This document shows positions 5,232-47,215 of a stretch of DNA of 50,420 bases, piece by piece. The notes under the pieces are model-generated. The model was not told where the DNA came from and did not search any database. It saw only the letters and a program-made list of their open reading frames with translations. Position numbers and translations under genes: made by a program. Location: positions 1 through 50,420 of the forward strand of contig JBKPDU010000018.1 of the NCBI GenBank assembly GCA_046728055.1. The letters run 5' to 3'. Positions within the stretch are counted from its first letter, which is position 1, and every line of letters begins with the position of its first letter. Source of the DNA: Actinomycetota bacterium (lineage in GTDB: Bacteria; Actinomycetota; UBA4738; HRBIN12).

Positions 5232-7154
5232 ATGCAACGTGGAGAGAAAGGCCATCCCCTGGTGAGGGCCAAACCGAACGCACCCGCCATCGCGTCGCGT
5301 TTCGCGTCGCTCGATACAGTGCGCGATCTCTTGGCGCGTCAAGAGGATCTACCTCAGGGCGCCATCCAAGCGATCCAGGCCCTCTCCGGAGAGCTTCGGC
5401 GGGCCACCGACGAGCTGGGCGAAGCCGACGCGCGCTACCGAGCCGTGGTCGAGCAGATCCCGGCCATCGTCTACACCGACGTCGTGGACGACACCATGGC
5501 CAGCACCTATGTGAGCCCACAGATCGAGGAGTTGCTCGGGATCACTCCAGAGGAGTACATCGCCGATCCGGATCTGTGGGCCAAGCTGTTGCATCCGGAG
5601 GACAAGGAGCAGGCCATCCAGACCTACCTCCATGGACGGATCGCTGGTGAGCCATTCAGCTTCGAGTACCGCCTGCTGGCCAGGGACGGACGGGTCGTGT
5701 GGTTCCGCGACAGCGCGGTGGTGGTGAACGACCGGACGGGCGCCCCCGCATTCGTCCACGGCGTGATGTTCGACATCACCGACCGGAAGAACGCGGAGGA
5801 ACAGGTCGCCTTCCTGGCCTATCACGACAGCCTGACCGGCCTTCCCAACCGGACGATGTTCGAGGAGCTCCTCGATCTCGGCTTGGCCAGGGCCCGCCGT
5901 CACGACCTCTCCGTGGCCGTGCTGTGCATCGATGTCGACGACTTCAAGCTGATCAACGAGAGCCTCGGCTACGAGGCGGGCGACGCCCTGCTGCGCGCCG
6001 TCGCGGATCGTCTCCGTGAGGCGACGCGGGAGACCGACCTTGTAGCCCGGCAGGGTGGGGACGAGTTCCTGTTGCTGCTGGCCGACATCGAGGGTGGCGC
6101 TGTCCCCGGGTTCGAGGGCACGGACGCCGCGATCCTGGTGGTCGAATCGGTCGCCGCGCGAGTCCACGAGTCGCTTCGGGCGCCGTTCAACGTCGCCGGC
6201 ACCGAGCTGTATGTCTCGGCGAGCATCGGCATCAGCATGTTTCCGCACGACGCCGACGATGCCGCCTCCCTCCTGAAGAACGCCGACGCCGCCATGTACC
6301 AGAGCAGGAAGACGGTTCCCGGCAGCTACCTCCTGCACTGGAGGCAGAGCGAGGAGGCGCTGGGCAAGCTGGCCCTCACGACCCGCCTCCGAAAGGCCGT
6401 GGAGAACCAGAACTGGCAGCTCCACTACCAACCGGTCGTCGAGCTGGCGGAGGGGAAGATGGTGGGCGTGGAGGCTCTCATTCGGTGGGCCGACCCCAAC
6501 GGGGGCCTGATCCCTCCCGGCGAGTTCATCCCCCTGGCCGAGGAGATGGGGCTGATCGAGGCCATCGGGGACTGGGTGGTCGAGGAGCTGAGCCGGCAGG
6601 CCGCCGAATGGCGGGCGGAAGGGCTCGAGCTCGAGGTGTCCTTCAACCTCTCACCCCGGCAACTGTGGCAGCCCGAACTGACCGAGAAGATCCTCGATCA
6701 GCTCGCCGCGGCCAAGCTCGACCCCGGGAGCATCATCGTCGAGGTGACGGAGTCGGCGGCGATGGCGGACCCGGAACGGACCCTGCGGATCCTCCGGGAC
6801 TTGAACGGCCGTGGCCTGCGCCTGGCCCTGGACGACTTCGGCACCGGCTACTCGTCGTTCGCCCGGCTCCGGTACATGCCCGTCGACGTGCTGAAGATCG
6901 ACCGGCTGTTCATCCGGGACGTCGCCAAGGACGCCCAGGCCGCCGACATGGTTCGGGCCATCATCCAGCTGGCGAACGGCCTGGGGATGACCCCGCTCGC
7001 CGAAGGCATCGAGACCGCGGACGAATGGCGGTTCCTGGTGGACCAGGGGTGCCGCCTGGGCCAGGGGTTCTACTTCTGCCGCCCGGCCTCCGCGGAGAAC
7101 ATCCTGGCCCGGTACCGCCGGTCCGGGTTCAAGCTGCTCGGATCGGCCTGCTAG
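5232..7154 (+). CDS. PAS-GGDEF-EAL signalling protein (diguanylate cyclase/phosphodiesterase)
   Basis: 640 aa. Has a PAS-like segment (YRAVVEQIPAIVYTD), a GGDEF motif (ARQGGDEFLLLL), an EAL motif (VEALIRW) and DDFGTGYSS. The exact start is uncertain. Confidence 0.85.
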   Translation: MQRGEKGHPLVRAKPNAPAIASRFASLDTVRDLLARQEDLPQGAIQAIQALSGELRRATDELGEADARYRAVVEQIPAIVYTDVVDDTMASTYVSPQIEELLGITPEEYIADPDLWAKLLHPEDKEQAIQTYLHGRIAGEPFSFEYRLLARDGRVVWFRDSAVVVNDRTGAPAFVHGVMFDITDRKNAEEQVAFLAYHDSLTGLPNRTMFEELLDLGLARARRHDLSVAVLCIDVDDFKLINESLGYEAGDALLRAVADRLREATRETDLVARQGGDEFLLLLADIEGGAVPGFEGTDAAILVVESVAARVHESLRAPFNVAGTELYVSASIGISMFPHDADDAASLLKNADAAMYQSRKTVPGSYLLHWRQSEEALGKLALTTRLRKAVENQNWQLHYQPVVELAEGKMVGVEALIRWADPNGGLIPPGEFIPLAEEMGLIEAIGDWVVEELSRQAAEWRAEGLELEVSFNLSPRQLWQPELTEKILDQLAAAKLDPGSIIVEVTESAAMADPERTLRILRDLNGRGLRLALDDFGTGYSSFARLRYMPVDVLKIDRLFIRDVAKDAQAADMVRAIIQLANGLGMTPLAEGIETADEWRFLVDQGCRLGQGFYFCRPASAENILARYRRSGFKLLGSAC

Positions 7155-16771: not shown

Positions 16772-16836
16772 GCCCGACCCCGAAGCGCGGGGCCGGGCGG
16801 CCGTGGCCGAGGGTCGTCATGAGATAGGTTCCCCGG

Positions 16837-18222
16837 ATGCGAAGTGACCCACGTCGACCGGACAGACGACGCCCGTCCGGCGGCGTGATCTCCGCGGTTT
16901 CCTTGGTCGTGGCGATGGCGTGTTCCAGCGGCGCACCGGACTGGAAACCCTTGCCCCCCATCGATCTCGGGACGCGCCCCACCCACGTCGACACGAGCTC
17001 GTTCCCCACCCGATGGCCCATCAAGCATGTCGTGTTCATCATCAAGGAGAACCGGACCTTCGATAACCTCTTCGGCCGGTTCCCAGGGGCCGATGGCGCG
17101 ACCTCGGGGTTGGATCGCGGTACCGAGCGTCCGCTGACGCAGGCCCTCGACCGGATCCCCGTCGACATCGTGCACTGCTACCGATGCGCGCTCCAGGCGT
17201 GGAACGGCGGGAAGATGGACGGGTTCGCTTCGGTCAGCGCGCCGGCCGACCGGTACGCCTACACGCAGTTCGGACCGAGGGATCTGCCCGCCTATTGGCA
17301 CTGGGCGAAACGGTTCGTCCTGGGGGACAACTTCTTCGCCTCGGCCCACGGCCCGTCGTTCCCCAACCATCTGTACACGATCGCCGCGCAGTCCGGCGGC
17401 GCGCACGACAATCCCATCCAGGACCTCGAGCAGCTCCGGGAGCGGCACCGAACGACGGGGCTGTACAAGGCGTGGGGGTGCGACTCGCTCGAGGAGGCCT
17501 ACGTTCCGATCGAGGACCGCGAGGGCAAGCAGGTGAACGTGCCGCCGTGCTTCGACTTCCTGACCGAGGGCGACCTCCTGCTCCGCGCGGGGATCCCGTG
17601 GGCCTACTACTCGGCGACGAACACGCAGAACGGGTATCTGTGGTCCGCGTACGATGCCGTGCGTCACATCCGCCGGGACACCGAGTTGTGGCAGTCGCAC
17701 GTGTTCCCGGTGGACGGGGTGGTACGTGACATCAGGGACGATCGACTGCCTCCGGTCACCTGGGTCACACCACGCTTCGAGCTCTCCGAGCACCCCGAGT
17801 ACAGCTTCTGCTGGGGTCAGAGCTGGACCACCCGGGTCGTGAACGCCATCATGGCCAGCCCCATGTGGAAGGACACGGCCATCTTCATCACCTGGGACGA
17901 CTACGGTGGGTTCTACGACCACGTCCCGCCTCCGCAGATCGATCGATTCGGCTTTGGGATCCGGGTCCCGCTGTTGCTCATCTCGCCGTACGCGAAGGCC
18001 GGGTACGTCGACCATACCCTCGGGGAGTTCTCCTCGGTCCTTCGGTTCATCGAGGACAACTGGGGCCTGACGCAGCTCACCCACCGCGACCGGGATGCCC
18101 ACAACCTCTCCGAGGCGTTCGACTTCGCGCAGGAGCCCAGGGAGCCCGACCCCCAGCCGGTGCGGACCGACTGCCCGGGCCGGAAGTTCCCGGATGATCC
18201 GGTCCCCTCAGTCCAGGGGTGA
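16837..18222 (+). CDS. Phosphoesterase-family protein (phospholipase C / AcpA acid phosphatase family), exported and possibly a lipoprotein
   Basis: [26 protein letters not shown] is the family signature, plus [15 protein letters not shown]-terminal Arg-rich signal region with AMAC. Confidence 0.8.
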
Positions 18223-19806
18223 GCCGATCGTTCGGGCGAAGGGCCAGCTCGGGGCGAGCTGAGCGAACGTCGTGCCGTACGGGCAGTCCCGTCGCAGTGG
18301 GAGCACCAGCTTCTTGAACCTCGGGTGCTCGAAGTCGAACGCGCCGGAGAGCGGGTCGGCATTCGCGTCCCGTTCGGTCATCGGATCGAGCCCGAACACG
18401 AGCTCGATGAACCGAAGGACGCTGGAGAACTCGTAGACGGTGGGATCGACCGCCCCCCCGTTCGGGTTCGTGCCCGCCACCGTGAACGGCGAGATGATCA
18501 GCGCAGGCGTCCGCGGTCCCAGCCCCATGTGGTCGATGTGTGGAGGGGCGACCGGGTCGAAGAACCCGCCGAAGTCGTCCCAGACCACCACGATGACCGT
18601 GGACCGCCAGAACTCGCTCCTCATGATGCTGTTGACCAGGTTCACGGTCCAGTTCTCGCCGGCGCACACGCTCTTCCCGTTGCCGGGATGTTCGTTGTAC
18701 GACTCGGGGGGGATGACCCACGACACGGCGGGAAGGAGGCCCCGTCGCACGTCGGAGGTGAAGTCGCCCGGCGGCCGGACGTGCCGCCACATCGAGCCGA
18801 ACCGGACGTGCCGGATCATCTGGAGCGCGTTCATCCACGCGTTCTCCTCCGCGTAGTACCTCCATGAGATGCCTTCCGCCCGGAGCTGGTCGGGCAGGAC
18901 CGGGATGTCGAAGCACAGCCGGATCTGGTCCCAGTACTCGCCGAGCGCGTACGTGTTGTCGCCGTTCGCGTCGATCCGCTCTTCCAGGATCATGATGTCG
19001 GCGATCTCCTTCCGCGACAGTCTCGGGCGAAAGCGCGTCGCGTACTCGGTGGGATCGTCGCAGTAGCTACCGACGTGATCGGTGGTGCTCTTGTTGTCCA
19101 CGATGTCCTTGGCTTGCGCCGCAACCGTATACAGGTGCTCGGGCAGCGTGGGGCCGTACATCGAGGTGAAGAAGTGGTCGGCGAGGACGAAGCGGTCGGC
19201 GTAGGCCCAGTAGTTCGGGATCCCCTTGCGGGTGAAGTACGTGTACCCGGACAGGTCGTGGCCGAACAGCGTGGCCCGTTCGGCGTCCATGGGGATCGGC
19301 CCGTTCATCCAGTTGAACCCGTTCATCTTGCCACCGTTGATCGCGGTGAGGGCACATCGAAAGCAATGGGTGAGGTCGTGGGCCTGGACGTCCCGGGCCC
19401 GGTGCAGCTCGACGGTTCGGCCGTCCCGACATCCGTCCGGCGAGCACCGGATGGTGCCACCCGACGTGGCTCCGGTCGCTCCCGGGTAGGTAGCGAAGTA
19501 GTTGTTGAACGTCCGATTCTCCTTGACCACGAACACCACGTGCCTCACGGGTGTGGACCCGGTGTCGATGCTCGGGGTCGATGTGGGGGAGGTGCCCGAG
19601 GGCGAAGCAGAAGGCGCACCCTGGGCCCGAGGAGAGCCTGCGTCCTCGCCGGGTTCGCCCTCACCCCCCCGGCCCGTCCAGGCGAGCACCCCGATGATGA
19701 GTGCGACCGTCAGGAGGAATCCGACGTACGCACGCCGTCGGCGGAACAACCGGCCGAACGACCCGGAACGGGACGGAGGCAGATCGGGTCCGGGCGAGTC
19801 CTCCAC
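18208..19806 (-). CDS. Phosphoesterase-family protein (PLC/AcpA family) paralog, N-terminal membrane anchor or signal
   Basis: [26 protein letters not shown] and [17 protein letters not shown] start at 19806. Hydrophobic segment [17 protein letters not shown]. The 3' end overlaps the convergent paralog by 15 bp. Confidence 0.8.
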
Positions 19807-19859
19807 AGCCGAACGCTAGCAGCAACCTCCGGGTTGGGCGGGGCTCGGTCGTTCCGAGC

Positions 19860-21266
19860 TCAACCCGCGCGAAGGGCGGCGAGCCGCGCAGCCAGCCGGG
19901 CGCGCATCACGGCGTAGCGAGGGTCGGCGGCTCGGTTCTCGAGCTGGTACGGGTCGGGAGCGCCGATCACCCCGGTCAGGTCGTACAGTTCCGTCTCGCC
20001 GGTCGCCAGCTCCACGTAGGCGAAGTCCTCGGTCCGCACCTGCCACCACGCCGGTACCTTGTCGTCGCCGACGTATTCGGTCAGAAGTCCCATGCGCCAC
20101 GACGCGGAGGGTCGCTCCTCGAGCAGCGGGACGAGGCTCCTCCCGTCCACCGGTGAGGGCGGCTCGATTCCGGCGACTTCGGCGAACGTCGGCGCGAGGT
20201 CGACGTTGGAAACGAGCCGAGGGTTCACGTGAGCTGATGCGCCCGGGAAGCGCACGATGAACGGCGTGCGGACGCACTCGTCGTATGGACACGTCTTGCC
20301 CACCCACCGGTGCTCACCGAACGAGAAGCCGTTGTCGGTCATGAACACGACGAGCGTGTTCGCGAGGGCACCCCGAACCTGCAGTGCCCGGATGACCTCG
20401 GCGATCAGGTCGTCAACGGACAGGAGCGTCTCGAAGCATCGCCGGTGGATCGCCCGGAGCTGTGCCCGCCGCGCCTCGTCCAGCGGGCGGAGCCGCTGGA
20501 CCCACATCGGCTTGTCGGACACGTCCTCCTCACCCAGGCTGGGGGGCGCGGTGATGGGGACCCCGGTCAACGCCCCGATGTCTCGGGCAGCCTCCGTCCA
20601 CGGACGGTGGGGCGCCGTGGGAGCCACTTCCAGGAAGAACGGGCGCCCCGGAGGTGCCGATCGGATGAACGCTGCGGCCGCGTCGGCGAGGACATCGGTC
20701 GAGTAGTTCCCCGGCCCATCCCCCCGGTAGTGCGGGAACCCCTGGTCGACGAGGACGTACCGGTAGTACGCCGTGGACTGGGCGCCTTGCCGCTTGACCA
20801 GCCAGCGATCCCACCCCGCCGGGACGTACGAGTTCGGGCCGAACGGATACCCGTTCACGTACTTGCCGATCAGGCCAGTGTGGTACCCGGCTGCGTGCAA
20901 CCAGGCGCCGATGGTCGAGGACTCGTCGAGGAGGTCGCCGTCGTAATTCGTCCGAACCCCGGTTCGGTGCGAGTACCTCCCGGTGAGGATCGAGGCCCTG
21001 GACGGACAGCACAGCGGGGTGTTCACGAAGGCGTTGGAGAACGTGATCCAGTGATCAGACGGATCCCGGATCATCGATTGGAGCTGGGGCATCACCGGCG
21101 GATCGTGCGGCAGCGAGTCGAGCGGCTGGTCGTCGGTCAGGATCAAGACGATGTTGGGCCGCCCGTCCGGTCGTGGCGGCGAGGAGGGCACGAACCCCGC
21201 GACGAGCAGCACGACGAGCGAGAGGACCGCAGCCGCCACGGTCCTGCCCACTGGGCGTTTGCCCAT
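19860..21266 (-). CDS. Sulfatase (Cys-type, formylglycine-dependent), secreted
   Basis: 468 aa with a signal peptide. NIVLILTDDQ and the C-x-P-S-R motif PLCCPSRASILTGR. Confidence 0.85.
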   Translation of the reverse strand: MGKRPVGRTVAAAVLSLVVLLVAGFVPSSPPRPDGRPNIVLILTDDQPLDSLPHDPPVMPQLQSMIRDPSDHWITFSNAFVNTPLCCPSRASILTGRYSHRTGVRTNYDGDLLDESSTIGAWLHAAGYHTGLIGKYVNGYPFGPNSYVPAGWDRWLVKRQGAQSTAYYRYVLVDQGFPHYRGDGPGNYSTDVLADAAAAFIRSAPPGRPFFLEVAPTAPHRPWTEAARDIGALTGVPITAPPSLGEEDVSDKPMWVQRLRPLDEARRAQLRAIHRRCFETLLSVDDLIAEVIRALQVRGALANTLVVFMTDNGFSFGEHRWVGKTCPYDECVRTPFIVRFPGASAHVNPRLVSNVDLAPTFAEVAGIEPPSPVDGRSLVPLLEERPSASWRMGLLTEYVGDDKVPAWWQVRTEDFAYVELATGETELYDLTGVIGAPDPYQLENRAADPRYAVMRARLAARLAALRAG

Positions 21267-23609: not shown

Positions 23610-24635
23610 ATGGACACCTGGCAGCCCCCGCAGACCGCCCCGCCCGCCGAGGGCCCGCTCGTCGACACCTTCGGCCGGGTCGCGGACGACCTGCGCATCT
23701 CGGTCACGGACCGCTGCAACTTCCGCTGCGTGTTCTGCATGCCGGCGGAAGGGCTGCAGTGGCTGCCCAGGCACGAGATCCTCACGTTCGAGGAGCTCAC
23801 CCGGCTCCTCGGGATCTTCGTGTCGCTCGGCGTTCGCTCCATCAAGGTGACCGGGGGCGAGCCGACCGTCAGGGCGGATCTCCCCACGCTCGTCTCCATG
23901 TTCCGGGAGGTCGGACCGCAGCTGGACATGTCGATGACCACGAACGGCATCCTCCTCGATCGCCTGGCCGAGCCCCTTGCCCGGGCCGGCCTCGACAGGG
24001 TCACCGTGTCGTGCCATTCGCTGATGCCGCACCGCTTCGAGGGAATGACCCGTCGCGATGCGTTGGACAAGGTGTTCGCCGGCTTGCGGGCGGCCGAGAA
24101 GGCCGGGCTCACCCCCATCAAGATCAACTGCGTCGTGATCGGGGGCGAGAACCAGGACGAGGTGGTGGACTTCGCGGCGTGGGCCAGACGGACCGGATAC
24201 ATCATCCGATTCATCGAGTACATGCCGCTCGACGCCGAGCACGCGTGGGAGCGGGCCAAGGTGGTTCCGTCGCGCGGGATCGTCGAGGCCATCGATCGCG
24301 TGTTCCCGCTGGCGTCCGAGGGACCGGACCACGAGCCTGCCGCCTCCTATCGGTTCGCCGACGGCGCGCCCGGCGGGATCGGGGTCATCCCCTCGGTCAC
24401 CGAGCCGTTCTGCGAGACGTGCAATCGGCTGCGCCTGACCGCCGAGGGCCAGGTCCGCTCGTGCCTGTTCGCGCTGGAGGAGCTGGACCTTCGAGAGCCG
24501 CTTCGAAGCGGCGCCACCGACGACGAGCTTGCTTCGATCATCCGGACCGCCGTGTGGCGCAAGTGGTCGGGGCACCGCATCAATCACCCCGACTTTGTCC
24601 AGCCCGAGCGCAGCATGTCGATGATCGGGGGCTGA
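23610..24635 (+). CDS. moaA: GTP 3',8-cyclase MoaA (radical SAM)
   Basis: 341 aa. CNFRCVFC cluster motif, a C-terminal second-cluster Cys (FCETCNRLRLTAEG) and a terminal GG. Confidence 0.9.
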   Translation: MDTWQPPQTAPPAEGPLVDTFGRVADDLRISVTDRCNFRCVFCMPAEGLQWLPRHEILTFEELTRLLGIFVSLGVRSIKVTGGEPTVRADLPTLVSMFREVGPQLDMSMTTNGILLDRLAEPLARAGLDRVTVSCHSLMPHRFEGMTRRDALDKVFAGLRAAEKAGLTPIKINCVVIGGENQDEVVDFAAWARRTGYIIRFIEYMPLDAEHAWERAKVVPSRGIVEAIDRVFPLASEGPDHEPAASYRFADGAPGGIGVIPSVTEPFCETCNRLRLTAEGQVRSCLFALEELDLREPLRSGATDDELASIIRTAVWRKWSGHRINHPDFVQPERSMSMIGG

Positions 24636-24650
24636 GCCCCGGCTGCGGGG

Positions 24651-25379
24651 TCAGAGCCCGGCCAGGCGCGCCAGTCCCGAGATCTTTCGCAGGACGAACC
24701 GCCGGCCGTCGCGCTCGACCAGTCCCCGTCGCTGGAAGTCCGACAGGATCCTGGTCACGTTCTCCCGACTGCCGCCGCACAGGCTGGCCAGGTCGGCGTG
24801 TGTCACGATGGCCGGCAGGATCGCGCCGTCGTCGGGAAGCTCGTCGAGGCTCGGGGACACCAGCTGGAGAAGGCGTTTGGCCACCCGACCCTTCAGGTCC
24901 AGGAACAGCAGGTCGTCCACGAAGGCCTCGTGGGCACTGACCTGACGCGCCAGTGCGCGGAGCAGGGCCAGCGAGGCCGTCGGCTGTCGGGTCAGGAACG
25001 ACTGGAAGGCCTCCCCCGGTGTGACCCAGACCTCGGTCTCCTCCAGAGCCAGCGCCGCCGCGGTCCTGGGCATCCCCCCCAACAGGCCGAGCTCCCCGAA
25101 GAACTGCGGCTGGTCGATCGTGGTGTGCAGCATCCGCTGCCCGCTGGCCGAGAGTGAGCTGATCTCCACCCGCCCCTCCATAAGGAAATGGATCTCGTGC
25201 GAGGGGTCGCCCTGATGGAACAGGTAGGTGTTCCGCCGGTAGTGACGGAGCGTCCCGGTCGAGGCAAGCTCATGGATGGCGCGGGGGTCGATCCCCTCGA
25301 ACAGCGGCATCCTGGCCATCTGCTCCTCGATCGTCGCCCGAGATCGCATCGTTCGTACCATCAGGCGAAGCGTACCCAC
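24651..25379 (-). CDS. crp: Crp/Fnr-family transcriptional regulator (cNMP-binding domain + HTH)
   Basis: 242 aa. cNMP motif FGELGLLGGMPRTAAA. The HTH recognition helix GGSRENVTRIL has the R-E-x-x-x-R pattern of E. coli CRP (RETVGR). The track start is GTG 25379; internal ATGs (25361, 25349, 25319, 25310) are possible starts. Confidence 0.85.
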   Translation of the reverse strand: MGTLRLMVRTMRSRATIEEQMARMPLFEGIDPRAIHELASTGTLRHYRRNTYLFHQGDPSHEIHFLMEGRVEISSLSASGQRMLHTTIDQPQFFGELGLLGGMPRTAAALALEETEVWVTPGEAFQSFLTRQPTASLALLRALARQVSAHEAFVDDLLFLDLKGRVAKRLLQLVSPSLDELPDDGAILPAIVTHADLASLCGGSRENVTRILSDFQRRGLVERDGRRFVLRKISGLARLAGL

Positions 25380-25411
25380 TCGCTCCGCCGCCGGGCTAGC
25401 CGGAAAATGAG

Positions 25412-25444
25412 GGACGGGCCCGGCGCTTGGCGCCGGGCCCGTCC
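25412..25444 (-). terminator. Perfect 15-bp GC hairpin followed by UUUU on the minus strand (intrinsic terminator or attenuator)
   Basis: GGACGGGCCCGGCGC-ttg-GCGCCGGGCCCGTCC. On the minus strand it is followed by CTCATTTTCC. It lies 24 nt after the small ORF stop and 33 nt before the crp GTG. Confidence 0.6.
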
Positions 25445-25467
25445 GAGGGAATCGCGGTTCGGTGGGA

Positions 25468-25587
25468 CTACGACTTCTTGAGCTTCTTCATCCCCTTCTT
25501 CCGCGTCACGCGCGTCGCAGCCTGCTTGGAGCTCGCCGTGGTCTTCTTGGCCGCTGGCTTCTTCGGGGAGACCTTCTTCGCCGCCAC
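25468..25587 (-). CDS. Unlisted 39-aa Lys/Ala-rich highly basic small protein
   Basis: GGGAGGAGG lies 7 nt before GTG 25587. Translation is VAAKKVSPKKPAAKKTTASSKQAATRVTRKKGMKKLKKS*. All 14 Lys codons are AAG, and 36 of 38 third positions after the start codon are G/C. A hairpin terminator follows. It is below the 60-aa cutoff of the ORF track. Confidence 0.7.
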   Translation of the reverse strand: MAAKKVSPKKPAAKKTTASSKQAATRVTRKKGMKKLKKS

Positions 25588-25667
25588 CCGATTCACCTCC
25601 TCCCCATCTCGTCAGCGCTTCATCGGCATCGGTTGGACCGATCCTGAAGCTCACCCACCGGGGAAGG

Positions 25668-25683
25668 CGTGTCGTCCGTCACC
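25668..25683. promoter_or_regulatory. Degenerate CRP-type box (7/10), in phase with two stronger boxes
   Basis: CGTGTCGTCCGTCACC. Its centre is 24 bp from the next box. Confidence 0.3.
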
Positions 25684-25691
25684 GACCCCAG

Positions 25692-25707
25692 GGTGATGTC
25701 GGTCACA
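25692..25707. promoter_or_regulatory. CRP-type box (9/10 match to TGTGA-N6-TCACA)
   Basis: GGTGATGTCGGTCACA. Its centre is 24 bp from the perfect box. Confidence 0.5.
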
Positions 25708-25715
25708 GCGAAGGT

Positions 25716-25731
25716 TGTGACGCCCGTCACA
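25716..25731. promoter_or_regulatory. CRP-type box, perfect TGTGA-N6-TCACA palindrome
   Basis: TGTGACGCCCGTCACA. It lies 15 nt after the Cys-rich ORF stop, with its centre about 136 nt upstream of the 39-aa ORF start. The Crp/Fnr gene is about 340 bp away. Confidence 0.6.
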
Positions 25732-25746
25732 CGACGGAGATCGAGG

Positions 25747-25956
25747 TCAGTCCAGCTCCGGGAGGTCGAGGGGATCCGGTCGGGGCCTGCACGCCCCGCA
25801 GTACAGAGCGTCCTCGACGACGAGCGCCCTGGTGACGTCGCCTCCTCGAAACAGCTCGAGCACGAACGGGAGGGTCTCGACGTGGTCCTCGCAGATCCCA
25901 CGGCCACAGAAGCGGCACGCTCCCACCGCCGTCCTGCGACAGTGCCAGCAATCCAT
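25747..25956 (-). CDS. Small Cys-rich zinc-ribbon protein (DUF2180-like)
   Basis: 69 aa: MDCWHCRRTAVGACRFCGRGICEDH....YCGAC, with three CxxC pairs plus Cys/His. GGGAG lies 7 nt before the ATG, which is 24 nt downstream of the M50 gene. The family name is from memory. Confidence 0.65.
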   Translation of the reverse strand: MDCWHCRRTAVGACRFCGRGICEDHVETLPFVLELFRGGDVTRALVVEDALYCGACRPRPDPLDLPELD

Positions 25957-25980
25957 CCGCTCACTCCCTCGAGGTCGGGG

Positions 25981-28149
25981 CTAATGCTGCCACGTTCGGT
26001 CCACGCTCGATGACGGCTTCAACGTCCCCTTGCGGAACGCCCCCGCCATCAGCCCGTCGAACCCGTCCCGGTCCAGACGGAACGCCCGCACGGGGGTCCT
26101 GGCCACCACGCTCGCGGTCCGAGGGACCTTCCGCAAGAGCGCGATCTCACCGAAGTGGGCTCCTGGACCCAGGGTCCGTACGAGCGTGCCGTCCTGGAGC
26201 ACCTCGACCTGCCCGGAGCCGATGGCGTAGAACGCGTCGCCGGCCTCGCCCTGCTCCAGGATCGCTTCGCCGGGAGCCACGTTCACCCATCGACCGTGCT
26301 CGAGGATCTCGGACAGCTCGTCGGGCTCGAGCGCAGCGAAGGCGGGCAGCGTGCGGAGCTCGGCCACGGCTTCGAGCGTCGGAGCGAACGCCGGGACGTG
26401 GACCATGTCGGCGAGCAGGCGCTCGAACGTGCTCTTGTCGATCTCGAATACCTGGGCGTCCTCGATGACCTCGACCGTGGCCGTTCTCGGCGCCGCCTCC
26501 GCCAGTCCGAGCTCGCCGAAGGACTCGCCGGGGCCAAGGACCCGGAGGACCCTTCGGTCTCCAGTTGCACGATCCTCCTCCACGACTTGGAGTGTGCCCC
26601 GGCGAACGACGTAGAAGGCCTGGGCTCGGTCCCCCTGTCGGACCACGGGCTTGCCCGCCGGAAACGCATGGAGCCGGACACGTCCTGCGAGGTCGGAGAG
26701 CACGTCCTCGGGCAGCTCCTCGAGGATCGGGAGCCGGTCGATGAGGTTGGCCGCCTCGACCCTCCACGACGTCTCCAGGCGAAACCGGACCTGCTCCCAC
26801 ACACCACGGAGCCTCCGAAAAAGCGCACGCGCCAGTGCGATCAGGCCCCGCAGGAGAGGACCGGTGACGAAGACCATAAGGGCAAGCAGCAGGACGCGGC
26901 CCACGACCCCGCCGTTCCACAGTTTGCCTACCAGGCCGCCGAAGATCTCCCGCCAGAAGTAGAAGGAGGTCGCGAAGGCGAAGATCGAGAACGCCACGCC
27001 GAGCGTCCCGTACAGGCCCAGACCGGCCTCCTGTTTGGAGAACCGCTCCCGTGCCCGGAGCTTCCGCCACAGGTCGTACCGGATGAACTGGAGCGACATC
27101 GGCCGAAGGTCGGGCACCTGGATCAGGTCGGACAGGATCCAGTACCCGTCGAGCTCCAAAAGTGGAACCAGGTTGAGGAAGATCACGAAGTAGTTCAGGA
27201 GGGCGAACTTGTACAGAACCGGCGCCACGATCGACCCGGGGAACGCCCACACGATCGCTGCCGCCGCACCGGCGATGATGAGCTCAGCATAGGGACCGGC
27301 GAACGACTGCACGATCCTGTGGCGGCGCTCCATCATCAGCCCGTCGGAGGAATCGACGAAGAAGGCCGGCGCACCGAAGTAGATCATGAAGCCGGCGCTC
27401 TTCACCCGCCGTCCGTAGTGCACCAGGACGGTGGCGTGGGCCAGCTCGTGGGTGAACGTGAGGAAGTAGTTCAGGGCCAGGATGATGAGCGAGGCCGCCG
27501 CCGCCGACTGGGCGCCGATGCCGAACCGGCCGGAGCGGTACACGGCGATGAACGCGACGAATCCGACGATCGCGATCAATCCCACCGGCACAGCCACCCA
27601 CCCCTTGAAGAACCATCGCAGCCCGTTCCGGTAGCTCCAGTCCACCATCCGATGAGCCCCGGCCCACTCCACCGACAGGGTCCGGACGAACTGCTGGGCC
27701 TTTCGCCGGCCGGTCGACGACGGCTTCAGCGCCCGCCGGACGATCGCGTCGGAATCGACGAACCTCGTCTCCAGGAAGTTGCCCACCCGCAATTGGCGCA
27801 CGAGGTCGATGACGCCGGAGAGCTCCAGGTCGCCCGACTCCCGGAACCGTTCGACCACGATCTCCCGTACGGTCCTCGACCCGTCCATGAGCGACAGCAG
27901 CTCGACCTCACCCGGCTCCAGTCGGTAGTGCAGCAGGTCCCTGGGGTTGGCCACGATCGCATAGTCGTTCCCCCATCGAAGGCGGAACTGCTTGACCTCC
28001 ACGTCCGCGGCAAGCTTGGGACGAAACTCCGCCGGATCGAGCTTCTCCGCCAGGTCGTCCCAAAATCCTCCTTCCCCATCCGAGGGGTGCACGGCCAGAC
28101 GATCGGAGACGGTCCGCCACAGGCCGCTCGGGGACCGGACGGTCGTCAC
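25981..28149 (-). CDS. Membrane M50 (site-2 protease) metalloprotease fused to an N-terminal PqqD/RRE-like domain and two C-terminal cyclic-nucleotide-binding domains
   Basis: 722 aa. HELAH at aa 234-238 within a TM helix, and NLVPLLELDG at aa 326-335 (S2P signature). About 7 hydrophobic helices between aa 185 and 440. cNMP motifs FGELGLAEAAPRTATV and FGEIALLRKVPRTASV. aa ~45-127 (AIVANPRDLLHYRLEPGEVELLSLMDGSRTVREIV...VIDLVRQLRVGNFLE) fit the PqqD pattern. The GTG start overlaps the upstream TGA. Confidence 0.8.
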   Translation of the reverse strand: MTTVRSPSGLWRTVSDRLAVHPSDGEGGFWDDLAEKLDPAEFRPKLAADVEVKQFRLRWGNDYAIVANPRDLLHYRLEPGEVELLSLMDGSRTVREIVVERFRESGDLELSGVIDLVRQLRVGNFLETRFVDSDAIVRRALKPSSTGRRKAQQFVRTLSVEWAGAHRMVDWSYRNGLRWFFKGWVAVPVGLIAIVGFVAFIAVYRSGRFGIGAQSAAAASLIILALNYFLTFTHELAHATVLVHYGRRVKSAGFMIYFGAPAFFVDSSDGLMMERRHRIVQSFAGPYAELIIAGAAAAIVWAFPGSIVAPVLYKFALLNYFVIFLNLVPLLELDGYWILSDLIQVPDLRPMSLQFIRYDLWRKLRARERFSKQEAGLGLYGTLGVAFSIFAFATSFYFWREIFGGLVGKLWNGGVVGRVLLLALMVFVTGPLLRGLIALARALFRRLRGVWEQVRFRLETSWRVEAANLIDRLPILEELPEDVLSDLAGRVRLHAFPAGKPVVRQGDRAQAFYVVRRGTLQVVEEDRATGDRRVLRVLGPGESFGELGLAEAAPRTATVEVIEDAQVFEIDKSTFERLLADMVHVPAFAPTLEAVAELRTLPAFAALEPDELSEILEHGRWVNVAPGEAILEQGEAGDAFYAIGSGQVEVLQDGTLVRTLGPGAHFGEIALLRKVPRTASVVARTPVRAFRLDRDGFDGLMAGAFRKGTLKPSSSVDRTWQH

Positions 28150-28865
28150 GGAGCGGGGCTCTGGGCCTGGCGCTCCTCGTCGATCCGTCGCTGGATGGAG
28201 GAGTACACGGACAAGCGAAGCGGCGGCCGCCGGCTGGAGGCGAACAGGTTCCCCAGGAACGCCCCACCGAGCAGCGCGATGCAGACCGTGGCGATCACCG
28301 TCCCCCAGGAAACGCCGCCACCGTCCTTCGGGACCTGGAGCGAACGGGTCACGGATGCCGTGAGCCCCCGATCATCGGTGGCGGCGAACCGGAACCGCGC
28401 GTCGGAAGGGATCGAGCGCAGGACGTCGGCCGTCGCGGCAAGCGACAGGTTCGCGCCCCCCGTCGTCACGACGACCTCGGCCCCGCTCATCTGGAGGTAG
28501 GAGCCGGCCACCAGGCCCCCGGTCCCGGCGAGGACTTCCTGGTCGCCGATGGCCAGTTTCTGGTCCTCGACGTCGTACGTGACGGTCTCGACCGCTTGAC
28601 CTCCGATGAGCAAAGAGAGGTCGAGTTCGTGCAGTCCCAGCCACCCACCGACCTCGGCCGCGTCGATCCGAAGCACCAGCCGGGATCCGAGTGCGAGGGC
28701 CCCGGAGGCGCTTCCTCCGACCGTGGGGCCCTCCGTCACCGCTCCTGCCGGTGCACCAGCCACGCCGAGCGCGATGGCGGATCCCATCAACGCTGCTGCG
28801 GCCCGAGCCCCTCGCTTCCACTTCACGGCCGGGCCATCTTCGTTCCGCTCACCTGGCCATGGCAA
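28146..28865 (-). CDS. Exported protein with N-terminal signal peptide and C-terminal transmembrane anchor plus a basic cytoplasmic tail
   Basis: 239 aa. Signal region KWKRGARAAAALMGSAIALGVAGAPAGA, a Gly/Val/Thr-rich beta-like ectodomain, TM WGTVIATVCIALLGGAFLGNLF, and tail ASSRRPPLRLSVYSSIQRRIDEERQ. Its stop overlaps the M50 gene start (GTGA). Confidence 0.6.
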   Translation of the reverse strand: MPWPGERNEDGPAVKWKRGARAAAALMGSAIALGVAGAPAGAVTEGPTVGGSASGALALGSRLVLRIDAAEVGGWLGLHELDLSLLIGGQAVETVTYDVEDQKLAIGDQEVLAGTGGLVAGSYLQMSGAEVVVTTGGANLSLAATADVLRSIPSDARFRFAATDDRGLTASVTRSLQVPKDGGGVSWGTVIATVCIALLGGAFLGNLFASSRRPPLRLSVYSSIQRRIDEERQAQSPAP

Positions 28866-28897
28866 CAGGTCGTCCAGAACCCAACCCGCCCCCGAGA

Positions 28898-28913
28898 CGT
28901 GACGGATGGCACA
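28898..28913. promoter_or_regulatory. CRP-like box (8/10) in the divergent region upstream of the M50 operon
   Basis: CGTGACGGATGGCACA. It lies 33-48 nt upstream of the first possible start of the 28865 gene and about 92-107 nt upstream of the divergent 29005 ORF. Confidence 0.35.
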
Positions 28914-29004
28914 GGAGGTCGGTGGCTCCGGTCACCGAAGTGTTCCCGGCTCATCCCCTAGCCTTCGTCCGTCCGGAAGCAACGACACGCAGGAGGCGAT
29001 CGAG

Positions 29005-29175
29005 ATGCTGACGGGAGAGATGGCGAAGTACCGGATCGACGATCGGGTCCGCGCAGCCCAGGCGGACCGGCTGGCCAGGTCGACCCGGGCGGGCCGGGCC
29101 GCAAACGCCAGAGGTGGCGTCAGGCGCATCGGGACCGCGATCGCGGCCGCGCTCATGTGGCCGATCAGGCACTGA
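29005..29175 (+). CDS. Small hypothetical protein (56 aa), Arg/Ala-rich with a short hydrophobic C-terminus
   Basis: AGGAGG lies 8 nt before ATG 29005. Sequence is MLTGEMAKYRIDDRVRAAQADRLARSTRAG..IGTAIAAALMWPIRH. The upstream part of track ORF 28906.. is unlikely to be coding. Confidence 0.45.
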   Translation: MLTGEMAKYRIDDRVRAAQADRLARSTRAGRAANARGGVRRIGTAIAAALMWPIRH

Positions 29176-29217
29176 GAGGCGACAGCGGACCCCCTGGTAT
29201 GTCGGCGCGAAGGCTCC

Positions 29218-30084
29218 TCACCGCCTGCCCACTACCACCCGAGTCACCTTGAGCTCGCCGCCGGCGGTGCTCCGCACGTCGCGCAGGCCGCGCCGGCGGA
29301 CCACGGTGGCTGCGGCTCGCGCCCGATCCGGGCTCACCTCGATCAGCAGCCACCCGCCCGGCTTCAACCACTCCCCGGCTTCGGCGGCGGCGCGATCGAT
29401 CAGTCCCAGCCCGTCGAGGCTGTTGTCGGTGAGCGTGTGTGCGGGCTCGAACCGCCGGATCTCATCGGGAAGCTCTCGGAGCTCCCGCCGTCCCACGTAC
29501 GGCGGATGAAAGGTGATGACGTCGACCTTGCCCTTGATCTCCCTGGGCAGGCCGCCGAACAGGTCGCCGGTCAGGAACGTCGCTCGAAGCTTCAACCGGG
29601 CGGCGTTCTGCCTGGCAATGCGGATGGCCCGCGCCGACAGGTCGGTGCCGAACACCTTCACGCCGCGCGTCTCGTTGGCCACCGCGAGGGCCACCGTTCC
29701 ACCACCCGTGGCCAGGTCCACGGCGATCGCTCGTCGGCGACCTCGCAACCGTCGAACGGCTTGCTCCGCAAGGAACTCGGTGGAGTCGCGAGGGACGAAC
29801 ACGCCGGGTTTGGCGATCAGTTGGATCCCCCGAAACTCCGCGAATCCCTCGATGAACTGGATCGGCTCGCCCGTGCCCCGTCGAGCCACCATCGCCCGGA
29901 ACCGCGTGGCGGCCCGCGCCGGGACCTCGTCCTCGGGATCGAGGTCGTCGACATCGACGCCCATGGCGAACGCCAGCAGCTCCTCGGATTCGATCTCTTC
30001 GCGGTCGCTCTGCCAGTGGTCGATGGCCGGCGACGCCTTGAGGGTCTTCACCGCCCGGTCCAGGAGTTCCTTCGCCTTGGCCAT
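29218..30084 (-). CDS. HemK/PrmC-related (glutamine-N5-type) methyltransferase with an atypical HPPY motif
   Basis: 288 aa. SAM motif AVDLATGGGTVALAVA; motif IV reads DVITFHPPYV instead of NPPY; a PrmC-like downstream segment EPAHTLTDNSLDGLGLI....LKPGGWLLIE. Confidence 0.65.
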   Translation of the reverse strand: MAKAKELLDRAVKTLKASPAIDHWQSDREEIESEELLAFAMGVDVDDLDPEDEVPARAATRFRAMVARRGTGEPIQFIEGFAEFRGIQLIAKPGVFVPRDSTEFLAEQAVRRLRGRRRAIAVDLATGGGTVALAVANETRGVKVFGTDLSARAIRIARQNAARLKLRATFLTGDLFGGLPREIKGKVDVITFHPPYVGRRELRELPDEIRRFEPAHTLTDNSLDGLGLIDRAAAEAGEWLKPGGWLLIEVSPDRARAAATVVRRRGLRDVRSTAGGELKVTRVVVGRR

Positions 30085-42369: not shown

Positions 42370-45300
42370 TCAGGAAGCCAGGGCGCGGATCTTTCGGAGG
42401 GCGACGGTCACGGCAGCCAGGTCGTTCGCGTCCTCCAGGGCCATCCCCCGCATGAACCTGGACAGGCGGTCGAAGGCCTCGGACCGGTCGTCCAGGAACG
42501 CAGCCACCCCTTCCTCCACCGGGCGGCCGCCCGCCTCCTCCAGGACCTTCTCCGCGATCAGGCGGCGGATCAAGAGCAGATCGTCCTGGACGGACTGGAT
42601 GGCCCATCGATGCCACTTGCTGGGGGTCGGGAGCCCGGCCAGCCGGCCCTCGAGCCAGTCGATGAACAGCGACGCCCCGACGGCGAAGAACGCCCGGGCC
42701 ACCTCCGGAACGGACCTCCCGGTTCGCTCGGCCACCTCGATGACATTCGGCCCGTGCACCAGTCCCGCCTGGAAGGCGTGCCGTCGGGCCGTCTCCTCGG
42801 GGACCCCCTGGTCGACCAGCCGCCACGCGTAGCGCTCGCGCTCTTGACGCGATGACTCCGTGACCACGTCCGGCAGGGCCTCGGACAGCTCGCGGAACGG
42901 CTCGCGATGGGCCTCGATGGCCCGGCCGAGACGATCCGGCACGTTCGCCAGATACCAGCGCGAGGTGAGCTCCACCAGTCGATCTACCCCAACCAGAAGG
43001 TCGGCGAGGATGGACGGCTCGACGCGCCCCACGAGGGCTTCGATCGCCTCCCATCGCCCGACGGCGCCGGTCACGTCCCGCGCCACGCGGTAGGCCCGAA
43101 CAACATCGGCAGCCTCCGCACCGGTCTCGTTCGACAGCCGGGTGACGAACGTGATCCCTTGCGAGTTCACTACGTCGTTCGCAACGATCGTGGCGATGAG
43201 CTCGCGGCGCAGCGGGTGCTCCGGGAGCAGCTGTCCGAACCGCTCCACCACCTGGGGAGGGAAGTAGCCTCGGAGGTCCTGCTCGAGGTACCGCGAGTCC
43301 GGGAGGGTCGAGGCCAGCACCGCAGCCGCCAAGCTCTTCTTCGCGTAGGCCAGGAGCACGGCGAGCTCTGGTCGGGCCAGGCCGCGCCCGGTCCGCCGGC
43401 GCTCGCCCAGCTCGTCCGTGCCCGGGAGGGCCTCGAGCTCGCGGTCCAGGACCCCTTCGCGCTCCAGCGCCTGCATCAGATCCTCGAACGCCTCGGTCCG
43501 AGAGGTGGACTGGTCCACCTCCTGGGACAGGATCTGGGCCTGCAAGAAGTTGTCGTACAGCACGTGCCGCACCACGTCCTGCTCGACCAGTGGCAGCAGC
43601 TGGTTCCGTTCCCCGAGCGAGAGCTCGCCCCGTTGCATCGCCAGGCCCAGGAGGATCTTCAGGTTCACCTCGTGATCGGAGCAGTCCACGCCAGCCGAGT
43701 TGTCGATGAAGTCGGTGTTGATTCGGCCGCCGGCGAACGCGTACTCGATTCGGCCTCGCTGCGTGAATCCGAGGTTCCCGCCCTCGGCCACCACGCGGCA
43801 CCGCAGGTCCTTTCCATCGACGCGCACGTTGTCGTTCACCCGGTCGCCGACGTCCGCGCGGGTTTCGGTGGAGCCCTTCACGAATGTGCCGATCCCGCCG
43901 TTCCACAGCAGGTCCACGGGCGCCCGGAGGATGGCCTTGACCACCTCGTCCGGGGTCAGCGCCTCGCCGTCGACGCCGAGCGCCCCCCTGGCCTCCGGCG
44001 AGAAGGGGATCCGCTTCTGCGTCCGCGGCCACACTCCGCCTCCCTGCGAGATCTTCGACCGGTCGTAGTCGTCCCACGACGAGCCGGGGAGCTCGAACAG
44101 GCGCTTGCGCTCGGCGTACCCGGCGGCGGGGTTGGGATTGGGGTCGATGAAGACGTGGCGGTGGTCGAACGCCGCGACCATGCACAGCTGGTTCGACATC
44201 AACATCCCGTTGCCGAACACATCGCCCGACATGTCGCCGATGCCGACCACCGTGATCGGTTGGGTCTGCGGGTTCGTCCCCATCTCGCGGAAGTGGCGCT
44301 TGACCGACTCCCAGGCGCCGCGGGCGGTGATCCCGAGCTTCTTGTGGTCGTAGCCCGTCGACCCGCCGGAAGCGAACGCGTCCCCCAGCCAGAATCCGTA
44401 CTCCTCCGCCACCTGGTTCGCGATGTCCGACAAGGTCGCCGTTCCCTTGTCCGCCGCCACGACCAGGTACTGGTCCTCCTCGTCGTGGACCACCACGTCG
44501 GTGGGGTGCACGACCTTGCTGTCCACCAGGTTGTCGGTGAGGTCCAAGAGGCCGCGCATGAACCGGATGTACTGCCGGCGGACCTCCTCCCGAAGGGCCT
44601 CGGCGTCCTGGGGCACTCGCTTCAGGACGAACCCGCCCTTGGACCCAGTGGGCACGATCACTGCGTTCTTCACCATCTGTGCCTTCATCAGGCCCAAGAC
44701 CTCGGTCCGGAAGTCCTGTCGCCTGTCGGACCACCGGATGCCGCCGCGTGCCACCCGGCCACCACGGAGATGGATCGCCTCGACCTCCGTGGAGTACACC
44801 CAGATCTCGAACAGAGGCCTCGGCTTGGGGATCTCCGGCACCATGGCCGAGCGGAACTTGAAGGCGATCGACTCGGCGGCGGGCCGGTAGGCATTCGTCC
44901 GAACGGTCGCATCCACCAACCCCAGATGGTTGCGAAGGATCCGGTCCTGTTCGAGCGAGCGAACCGCGTCGAGATCCCCCAGGATCTCTGCCCGGAGCGC
45001 CTCCACGGCCTGCGGATCCTGGAGCCCGGCGGGATCGAACTTCAATTCGAACAGTCGAATGAGCTTGGCCCCGATGTGCGGGTAGGCCGCGAACGCATCG
45101 TTCTTGTACTCGGCCGTGAAGCCCGCATTCACCCGATGGTGGTATTTGCGGTAGGCCCGCAAAATCTCGACCTCTCGCCAGTTCAGCCCCCCGGTCACCA
45201 CCAGGCGGTTCAGCGAGTCCGACTCCGCCTCGCCCCGCCACACCGCCGAGATGGCCTGGGCGATCCGGGCTCCGGACTCGGCTACGTCGAGCGGCTGGCC

Positions 45301-47169: not shown

Positions 47170-47215
47170 GGAGACATCGTACCGGCGGGCAGGGCGCAGA
47201 CAGCGCGCAGTCGCC

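Follow-up and report, generated by a model that had tools for sequence, protein, structure and literature searches.

Known means of controlling site-2 proteases (S2Ps) are an upstream cleavage, PDZ or CBS domains, and partners that inhibit them. To our knowledge, direct control of an S2P by a cyclic nucleotide has not been characterized, and in the literature that we searched we found neither a description of an M50/S2P protease with cyclic-nucleotide domains nor a counterpart to the gene set described here, which agrees with an earlier reading of the letters alone (hereafter, the sequence-only reading) that knew of no characterized system of this composition. The gene set lies at positions 24,651 to 28,913 of a 50,420-nucleotide stretch from an Actinomycetota bacterium (assembly GCA_046728055.1, contig JBKPDU010000018.1), the whole of which we call the window. 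It encodes a membrane-anchored protein, an S2P bearing two cyclic-nucleotide-monophosphate-binding (cNMP) domains, a Cys-rich protein, a polybasic protein of 39 residues and a Crp-family regulator. The sequence-only reading took it for a self-contained circuit in which one cyclic nucleotide governs both transcription and proteolysis. The module appears to be an uncharacterized combination of known kinds of component (S2P and CRP), and on balance we lean toward viewing it as a self-regulating second-messenger module built around an S2P of the type that carries a RiPP recognition element (RRE; RiPP, peptide made by ribosomes and then post-translationally modified).

Several described systems share parts of this composition. 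In MpaP (DapP), an RRE domain is fused N-terminally to an intramembrane S2P, and the enzyme removes the leader peptide of daptides (10.1101/2023.03.08.531785). The protease considered here likewise has a putative PqqD/RRE-like domain N-terminal to its M50 core, matches the corresponding model over nearly its full length, and has nearby a small co-encoded peptide with a conserved N-terminal and a variable C-terminal part. It differs from MpaP in scoring below the family cut-off, in carrying about 280 extra C-terminal residues with the two cNMP domains, and in its linkage to a Crp regulator and an operator array. Moreover, neither its neighborhood in the window nor the syntenic loci contain an MpaB-type DUF-RRE protein, MpaC dehydrogenase, MpaD aminotransferase, MpaM methyltransferase or transporter, so that the locus does not qualify as a daptide or RiPP cluster. 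SpoIVFB of Bacillus subtilis combines a C-terminal ligand-binding domain with the inhibitory membrane partners BofA and SpoIVFA (PMC9042235, PMC11486902), and its active-site cleft can be occupied by a transmembrane (TM) segment of a partner (PMC9042235). The present locus shares with it, by prediction, a cytoplasmic C-terminal small-molecule-binding domain on a functionally important linker and a membrane partner encoded immediately upstream in the same operon; it differs in having tandem cNMP domains instead of CBS, an additional putative RRE domain, no known pro-sigma substrate, and a partner that is oriented N-out/C-in and fused to the protease in some lineages.

Other comparisons are more partial. 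RseP, RasP and Rip1 share the M50 core, and distant relatives of our protease adjoin genes for extracytoplasmic-function (ECF) sigma factors and ZAS anti-sigma factors; however, the protease here has no PDZ domain, its regulatory domains are cytoplasmic rather than periplasmic, and the window holds no sigma/anti-sigma pair. Rv3676 of Mycobacterium tuberculosis and GlxR of Corynebacterium glutamicum correspond to our Crp in fold, RE-x-x-x-R helix, TGTGA-N6-TCACA operator and 22-bp class II spacing, whereas the similarity to our Crp is distant, the operators here form arrays of two to five sites at a 23-24-bp phase, and crp lies 3' of a small open reading frame (ORF) and a terminator. Two consecutive cNMP domains with canonical cassettes also occur in PKA, PKG and the TIGR03896 family; here the cNMP module sits on a membrane protease instead of a kinase-inhibitory segment or a stand-alone protein. 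By analogy, the module may work like a combination of an RRE-dependent S2P leader peptidase, a SpoIVFB-like partnered S2P and a class II CRP autoregulatory promoter.

The protease and its conserved partners

Read along the minus strand, the order is anchored protein, protease, Cys-rich protein, a 160-nt spacer with CRP boxes, the 39-aa ORF, a hairpin and crp (Table 1). All seven items of the sequence-only reading, the five genes, the boxes and the hairpin among them, were recovered where it had placed them. More than 1,400 close homologues of the protease were found, essentially all from uncultured Actinomycetota and one labelled Solirubrobacterales. Our comparisons draw on 80 loci from species-representative genomes (protease identity 53-92%) and several metagenome contigs, with operators and the small ORF counted in 72 related loci, Crp in 73, and residue invariance of the protease in 39 homologues. 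Among about 80 loci examined by tblastn, the gene for the Cys-rich protein (Cys69) lies 3' of the protease in all, and crp is present wherever the contig extends far enough. In the synteny check that the sequence-only reading had proposed, protease, Cys69, small ORF and crp stay linked across more than 80 related loci despite flank turnover and reordering: protease, Cys69 and crp remain together where other, unrelated genes have taken the place of moaA and prmC at the flanks, and in L085 (5001-9389; 41% protease identity) all four core genes persist with Cys69 and crp in an opposite-strand operon of their own, the protease being followed there by a CRP box and then by a 55-aa basic ORF with STR/NTR repeats. 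Cys69 still adjoins the protease or crp at 36-41% protease identity, and the protease-Cys69 pair persists in L084 and L086 (36-37%). Because this linkage survives changes of flank and gene order, protease, Cys69, the small ORF and Crp form a conserved, co-inherited module of uncultured soil Actinomycetota and not a chance adjacency.

The protease matches Peptidase_M50 (28.6 bits against a Pfam cut-off of 27.2), and its HExxH and NxxPxxxLDG motifs are intact as HELAH (aa 234-238) and NLVPLLELDG (aa 326-335), with H234, E235, H238, N326, P329 and D334 invariant among its homologues and helices of the AlphaFold2 (AF2) model covering both motifs. By these features it classifies as an M50/site-2 protease. 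Its C-terminal part matches cNMP_binding in two copies (E 1.9e-44, Pfam), with the phosphate-binding cassettes FGELGLAEAAPRTAT and FGEIALLRKVPRTAS; both retain the Gly-Glu and Arg-Thr/Ser residues, and G545, E546, R555, G667, E668 and R677 are invariant. These domains accordingly classify as cyclic-nucleotide-binding domains, for which ligand binding is itself a prediction. In the AF2 model (pLDDT 76), two very long helices (372-412 and 414-471) follow the TM core and lead to two beta-barrel domains, and a Foldseek search with the whole model matched this tandem to PKA/PKG regulatory subunits (E 1e-19) and returned nothing for the N-terminal domain or the core.

The PqqD/RRE-like N-terminal domain noticed in the sequence-only reading finds support in weak, consistent matches of PqqD type. 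Members of the N-domain alignment matched ScmD (PqqD-related) in 12 of 15 cases, at best with E 6e-4, and PqqD in 5 of 15, and the model places strands at 51-55, 63-68 and 73-77 before helices at 79-85, 94-105 and 110-122. Among NCBIfam models, that of the daptide metalloprotease (NF041824) covers aa 59-440 of the protease with model positions 13-376 of 379 (E 8e-47), its 160 bits lying under the equivalog cut-off of 300, which makes our protease a relative and not a member; the YydH/LiaK epipeptide protease model matches at E 1e-11, and the TIGR03896 (cyc_nuc_ocin) model matches weakly. The protease is thus no generic S2P; it is a relative of RRE-fused S2P leader peptidases, and the description that seems to suit it best is that of an RRE-S2P to which a PKA-R-like sensor has been added.

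Cys69 carries the pattern CxxC-x7-CxxC-x4-C-x2-H ... CxxC, followed by an invariant acidic, proline-rich tail (PRPDPxDLPELD). Of its seven Cys and one His, all are invariant across homologues except C53, which is nearly so. With 72-96% identity across loci, against 53-92% for the protease, Cys69 is the most constrained component of the module. Its AF2 model shows N-terminal knuckles and a long beta-hairpin, and a Foldseek search of the PDB with this model gave nothing below E 2, hence no fold is assigned.

Canonical S2P substrates have a topology opposite to the N-out/C-in arrangement of the anchored protein. This protein, which probably starts at the GTG at 28826, has a signal-like N-terminus, a C-terminal TM helix (residues 182-211) and a basic cytoplasmic tail; the sequence-only reading correctly gave it a signal peptide and a C-terminal TM anchor and took it to be translationally coupled to the protease, whose GTG start overlaps its TGA stop by 4 nt (GTGA). 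The TM helix (…GGAFLGNLF…) and the tail RRPPLRLSVYSSIQRRIDEE are kept down to about 30% identity. In L001, L002 and L019 the ectodomain is gone, and what is left, TM plus tail, forms an in-frame fusion with the N-terminus of the protease; throughout the L063-L082 clade a more diverged TM-plus-basic segment is likewise fused and the ectodomain lost, and L033 has a separate mini-anchor ORF whose stop overlaps the protease start. Such fusion and fission in several lineages argues for a stoichiometric partner of the protease (plug, scaffold or sensor arm) and, together with the atypical topology, speaks against a canonical substrate.

The Crp protein gave M. tuberculosis CRP and C. glutamicum GlxR as its best solved relatives (about 1e-30). 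Its recognition helix SRENVTR (R-E-x-x-x-R) is found in 71 of 73 loci and matches the three contact residues of the base-contacting RETVGR helix of Escherichia coli CRP (PMC10187061). The cassette Gly-Glu and Arg-Thr are kept in all loci, and no Cys cluster is present at the N-terminus. What the sequence-only reading left as Crp/Fnr is thus of CRP and not FNR type. Compared with the longest ORF, the gene may in truth begin a few codons further downstream.

Operators, promoters and the small polybasic gene

The three boxes between Cys69 and the small ORF are, as the sequence-only reading had them, spaced by exactly 24 bp. One is a perfect match and two are weaker, and apart from boxes 1 and 2 no site in the 50-kb window comes within one mismatch of the consensus. 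A box with at most one mismatch occupies the same internal spacer in 71 of the 72 loci, a perfect one in 50, and 67 hold two to five boxes with at most two mismatches. Of 129 distances between neighboring boxes, 98 fall at 22-24 bp and 27 at the multiples 46-48, 69-71 or 91-93 bp; the arrays are phased and more than 100-fold enriched. The operator motif derived from the loci is nGTGAC(G)nn(C)GTCACa, and a degenerate proximal box, GGTGAcgNNcgRCACA, recurs among them. The end of the proximal box and the A of a conserved -10-like nANGAT lie 22-23 nt apart in 33 of the 39 loci measured, the window having 22 nt, and no -35-like hexamer is seen at this promoter. According to a recent review, only class II promoters have 22 bp between the CAP site and the second base of the -10 (PMC10187061). 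From this spacing and the missing -35-like hexamer we infer class-II-type activation of the small-ORF/crp unit from its proximal, weakest box, with the stronger boxes upstream.

The promoter of the protease operon presents a different picture. A scan for the sigma-70 consensus found no promoter, as expected at such GC content, and the promoters are accordingly deduced from conservation across loci. That of the protease operon reads TTGCnn-N17/18-nA.GAT with the start codon within about 7-10 nt, for which reason its mRNA would be nearly leaderless. The window contains 6 boxes with at most two mismatches per 50 kb where 10.6 are expected, so that the upstream box at 28898-28913, which does exist as first described, is not above chance when taken alone; it is validated by conservation, since among loci whose anchor gene is full-length 26 of 35 have an orthologous box next to or ahead of the -35, against 5 of 38 others. 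Close loci also keep the pattern cGGTGAccggNgCCACCga at the weaker box upstream of it. CRP control thus appears clade-specific for the protease operon and universal for the small-ORF/crp unit. Loci L063-L083 have no CRP boxes at the protease promoter and carry instead, about 100-150 nt 5' of the protease start, a strongly conserved GCTAGCAACGTTGCGT element followed by cAGGAT; its palindromic core CAACGTTG overlaps a -35-like TTGCGT, and the element may be a different operator of this far clade. An Rfam scan of 24000-29500 gave only sub-threshold chance matches.

The small ORF was first noted for its strong Shine-Dalgarno (SD) sequence and its own hairpin, and both are there: GGAGG stands 8 nt upstream of the start, and behind the ORF comes a GC hairpin of 15 bp together with a T-tract. 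An SD-like sequence recurs in 67 of 72 loci, and a strong hairpin of differing sequence lies 3' of the ORF in all 72. Since a search for homologues with a 42-aa version returned only three proteins, members of the family were recognized within the loci from their place and their motifs; the exact 39-aa protein is found in public protein sets. In about 70 loci the product follows a common plan, M-A-E/D-K-K-I/V-S/T-P-K, then 10-12 variable residues, AATRV(T/S)K, and a basic tail of tandem repeats that is specific to the lineage (KVQ, KKLSH, TKRQ, KS or STRAK), with a median length of 44 aa and 34% Lys plus Arg. Codon entropy across AATRVT is 1.40 at third and 0.13 at second positions; this, together with the conserved SD, indicates a translated and selected gene. 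The layout of a conserved N-terminal and a hypervariable C-terminal part resembles that of the leader and core of peptides handled by RRE enzymes.

Table 1. Features of the module, listed from high to low coordinates of the window
Feature	Position	Strand	Remarks
Divergent 56-aa accessory ORF, MLTGEMAKYRIDDRVRAAQADRL...	29005..29175	+	kept here in many near-clade loci
Weaker CRP-like box GGTGAccggagCCACC	28921..28936	.	23 bp upstream of the 28898-28913 box; read from sequence
CRP-like box TGTGCcatccgTCACG 5' of the operon promoter	28898..28913	.	2 mismatches to TGTGA-N6-TCACA
Putative anchor-protease-Cys69 promoter	28836..28865	-	-35-like TTGCCA 28860-28865, 18-nt spacer, -10-like GAAGAT 28836-28841; start codon about 10 nt on
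Signal-peptide protein with extracytoplasmic domain, C-terminal TM WGTVIATVCIALLGGAFLGNLF and tail RRPPLRLSVYSSIQRRIDEE	28146..28826	-	longest ORF to 28865
Intramembrane metalloprotease, 722 aa	25981..28149	-	Pfam and NCBIfam matches, invariant residues, AF2 model
RRE/PqqD-like domain of protease	27775-28017	-	aa ~45-125
M50/S2P core of protease	26815-27621	-	aa ~177-445; HELAH aa 234-238
cNMP domain A of protease	26380-26712	-	aa ~480-590; after long helical linker
cNMP domain B of protease	26032-26352	-	aa ~600-706
Cys-rich zinc-binding-type protein (Cys69), 69 aa	25747..25956	-	weak DUF2180/C5HCH resemblance
CRP box 1 (distal) TGTGAcgggcgTCACA	25716..25731	.	perfect TGTGA-N6-TCACA; sole perfect match in 50 kb
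CRP box 2 TGTGAccgacaTCACC	25692..25707	.	1 mismatch
CRP box 3 (proximal) GGTGAcggacgACACG	25668..25683	.	3 mismatches; centred near -41.5
-10-like hexamer cAGGAT of small-ORF/crp promoter	25641..25646	-	nANGAT conserved across loci
Shine-Dalgarno GGGGAGGAGG of small ORF	25595..25604	-	read from sequence; kept across loci
Polybasic protein, 39 aa, MAAKKVSPKKPAAKKTTASSKQAATRVTRKKGMKKLKKS	25468..25587	-	positional homologues in ~70 loci
Intrinsic-terminator-like hairpin between small ORF and crp	25412..25444	-	15 pairs (14 GC), loop 3, tail CTCATTTTCC
Crp-family transcription factor	24651..25379	-	longest ORF 242 aa; cNMP_binding 1e-22, HTH_Crp_2 5e-15 (Pfam)

A proposed mechanism and its alternatives

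How these parts might act together can be outlined as follows. A cyclic nucleotide, most likely cAMP from cyclases encoded elsewhere, would activate the Crp dimer, which would fill the perfect distal box just 3' of the Cys-rich gene first and then load the weaker boxes at their 23-24-bp phase down to the proximal box in the -35 position; such ordered filling could yield class-II-type activation with a thresholded response. The promoter would drive strong translation of the polybasic 39-aa protein, while the terminator hairpin would limit read-through into crp and so attenuate positive autoregulation, and in the clade of the window the further boxes may couple the anchor-protease-Cys69 operon to Crp as well. 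The same nucleotide would bind the PKA-R-like cNMP tandem of the protease and, via the long helical linker, gate the access of substrate to the membrane-embedded HExxH/LDG site. A comparable gating role has been proposed for the CBS domains and interdomain linker of SpoIVFB-type S2Ps. Docking of a short peptide motif might fall to the cytoplasmic RRE-like domain, and the TM-plus-tail protein encoded upstream might serve as a stoichiometric partner, plug or sensor arm, with the Cys-rich protein as an obligate cofactor. As substrate we would guess the polybasic protein, on account of its leader/core-like layout; the protease would cut it as MpaP or YydH cut RiPP precursors, and the nucleotide would then control both synthesis and processing or removal of this protein. 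In this full form, with the cNMP-bound tandem gating an RRE-S2P that processes a CRP-induced, leader-bearing polybasic protein, the zinc protein as cofactor and the TM partner as plug, the proposal is tentative, and we hold it to be possible rather than probable.

Several observations weigh against this outline or against the module as we read it. The RRE assignment combines weak hidden-Markov-model matches with a model of medium confidence, a search of PDB sequences with the N-domain profile gave nothing meaningful, and the sub-threshold score to NF041824 has already been mentioned. The choice of the polybasic protein as substrate is a guess: this protein is soluble and lacks a hydrophobic segment, in contrast to what is typical of S2P substrates. 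Neither the window nor the syntenic loci inspected hold a RiPP-modifying enzyme or exporter near the module. On the side of transcription, a spacing of 24 bp is not an integral number of helical turns and does not make cooperative binding to one face obvious; the far clade has an overlap of its last box-like element with the -10-like sequence, and this could point to repression; and the boxes of the protease operon are missing in about half of the family. A Pfam scan of 25 ORFs of the window, which left aside a few small ORFs and the 39.9-42.0 kb region, revealed no class III cyclase, and two distant relatives (L084 and L086) sit beside ECF sigma and ZAS anti-sigma genes. The self-contained nucleotide circuit of the sequence-only reading consequently stands in part: the conserved module, the cassette residues and the operators speak for it, and the CRP control of the protease operon is confined to certain clades.

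The likeliest alternative, which we nevertheless regard as unlikely, is that the anchored protein encoded upstream undergoes classical regulated intramembrane proteolysis. A signal from outside the cytoplasm or a site-1 cut would act on its ectodomain, after which the S2P would cut the glycine-rich TM helix and free the cytoplasmic tail or a held protein (e.g., the Cys-rich one), and the cNMP domains would add a cytoplasmic checkpoint. The translational coupling of anchor and protease would suit such a scheme, as would the helix-destabilizing GG/GN of the TM, the conservation of TM and tail (RLSVY..IQRRxDEE), the ECF sigma/ZAS anti-sigma pair that distant relatives have in the same position, and the HtrA-like trypsin-PDZ protease inserted into the module of L041 and L043. 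The N-out/C-in anchor, on the other hand, is opposite in orientation to canonical S2P substrates, and the many lineages in which the ectodomain is absent and TM plus tail are fused to the protease fit a subunit or plug better. Sigma and anti-sigma genes are present only beside the 36-37%-identical relatives L084 and L086; no sigma or anti-sigma factor occurs among the 25 Pfam-scanned ORFs of the window (the few small ORFs and 39.9-42.0 kb being outside the scan). The statement of the sequence-only reading to that effect is therefore correct for the window and does not extend to these two relatives.

Alternatively, the locus could be an ordinary CRP-regulon neighborhood, with boxes served by a global CRP (perhaps the product of the Crp gene here) and cNMP domains that are structural or bind another ligand. 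We give this little credence. The box is indeed the generic CRP consensus, the Crp gene is closest to global actinobacterial CRPs, and cNMP folds with other ligands exist, for example the "cAMP-independent" trypanosome PKA-R with nucleosides (PDB). Against this stand the linkage that survives rearrangement and flank turnover, the canonical Gly-Glu and Arg-Thr/Ser that are invariant in both cNMP domains of the protease, and the finding that the only strong boxes in 50 kb fall inside the module. Slightly more doubtful still is a minimal maturation locus for a ribosomal peptide of bacteriocin or signal type, in which the RRE-S2P would free from the polybasic precursor a cationic peptide acting extracellularly or on membranes, with only the timing of its production left to CRP and cNMP. 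The position of the protease within the RRE-S2P leader-peptidase clade, the leader-like and hypervariable core-like parts of the small ORF, the weak match to TIGR03896 (in NCBIfam, "bacteriocin-type transport-associated protein") and the M16 peptidase adjoining the module in L086 would all be accommodated. The window and the syntenic loci inspected, however, contain no modification enzyme, exporter or immunity gene, the module is vertically conserved among housekeeping genes, and the tails are low-complexity repeats instead of defined cores. Finally, a cyclic-nucleotide-activated anti-phage effector of Pycsar/CBASS type is very improbable and was rejected, in that the matches to Pycsar effector models (E 1e-21 to 1e-23, PADLOC) are cross-matches spanning only the cNMP domain, no cyclase partner is present, and the module, with its CRP regulator, lies in a part of the chromosomal core that is stable and flanked by housekeeping genes.

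Relatives, surroundings and significance

The wider family helps to place the self-regulating module that we favor. The combination of M50 with tandem cNMP domains is widespread in environmental sequence, being represented by 877 clusters (50% identity) below 1e-30, some of them multi-cNMP proteins without an M50 core, and variants include an FHA domain, a peroxiredoxin domain and a 400-aa insert. In L084 (145-3437) the order is ECF sigma factor, a 128-aa protein, a 37%-identical protease and a homologue of Cys69. A ZAS-type HxxxCxxC occurs in the 128-aa protein, whose C-terminal half weakly resembles the RiPP-precursor family Frankia_peptide (PF14407; E 9e-5, below cut-off), and this protein could be a leader-tagged anti-sigma factor recognized by the RRE domain. 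L086 (208-5646) has a 36%-identical protease with a divergent homologue of the 56-aa ORF alongside; downstream come a homologue of Cys69, a PqqF-like peptidase of family M16, then an ECF sigma factor and the first part of a ZAS anti-sigma factor. These arrangements hint that the wider protease family uses RRE-type recognition on regulatory proteins.

Other loci show further variation. L085 also carries a stand-alone 141-aa cNMP-binding protein and a response regulator. In L041 (8369-9794) and likewise in L043, an insertion of 1.5 kb between the Cys-rich gene and the box array encodes an HxlR-type helix-turn-helix regulator (minus strand) and the trypsin-like PDZ protease (HtrA-like), with boxes and small ORF intact downstream. 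A 1073-aa M50 variant with two cNMP domains, about 35% identical in its N-terminal half, occurs in L087 (5001-8222) and L088 (1912-5133); it adjoins ABC-2 transporter genes, has no Cys69, Crp or small ORF nearby and probably belongs to a separate system. The divergent 56-aa ORF (MLTGEMAKYRIDDRVRAAQ…) of the window shares its promoter region with the protease operon, has a recognizable homologue in L086 and gave no family match. A 1637-aa ORF 5' of the module in L054, considered as a class III cyclase, was rejected because Pfam lists for it a STAND NTPase and WD40 repeats and no cyclase.

As to the surroundings, the only nucleotide-second-messenger enzyme seen in the window is a PAS-GGDEF-EAL protein (5232-7154, plus strand; c-di-GMP turnover), 18 kb from the module. 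The adjacent radical-SAM gene encodes MoaA (Mob_synth_C) and is unlinked in distant loci. At 42370-47301 (minus strand) lies the gene for a large NAD-specific glutamate dehydrogenase of 1643 aa (Bac_GDH_CD, ACT and helical-motif domains). Two convergent, paralogous Phosphoesterase-family genes (PLC/acid-phosphatase-like; 16828-18222, plus strand, and 18208-19815, minus strand) adjoin a sulfatase gene (19860-21266), and with a PhoX-like fragment at 2-1273 the region looks like a phosphate- or sulfate-scavenging neighborhood.

If the tentative mechanism is true, the locus would represent a nucleotide-controlled peptide-processing switch in which RiPP recognition machinery is reused for intracellular regulation, for example to turn a protamine-like binder of nucleic acid or membranes on or off. 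An apparent RRE domain outside a recognizable RiPP pathway matters for RRE-based genome mining, and the box array would serve as a naturally occurring, compact case of a CRP switch with several phased operators. The locus also adds two conserved, uncharacterized mini-proteins to the cAMP field in Actinomycetota, and a mechanism worked out here would annotate the large, uncharacterized family of M50 proteases with tandem cNMP domains.

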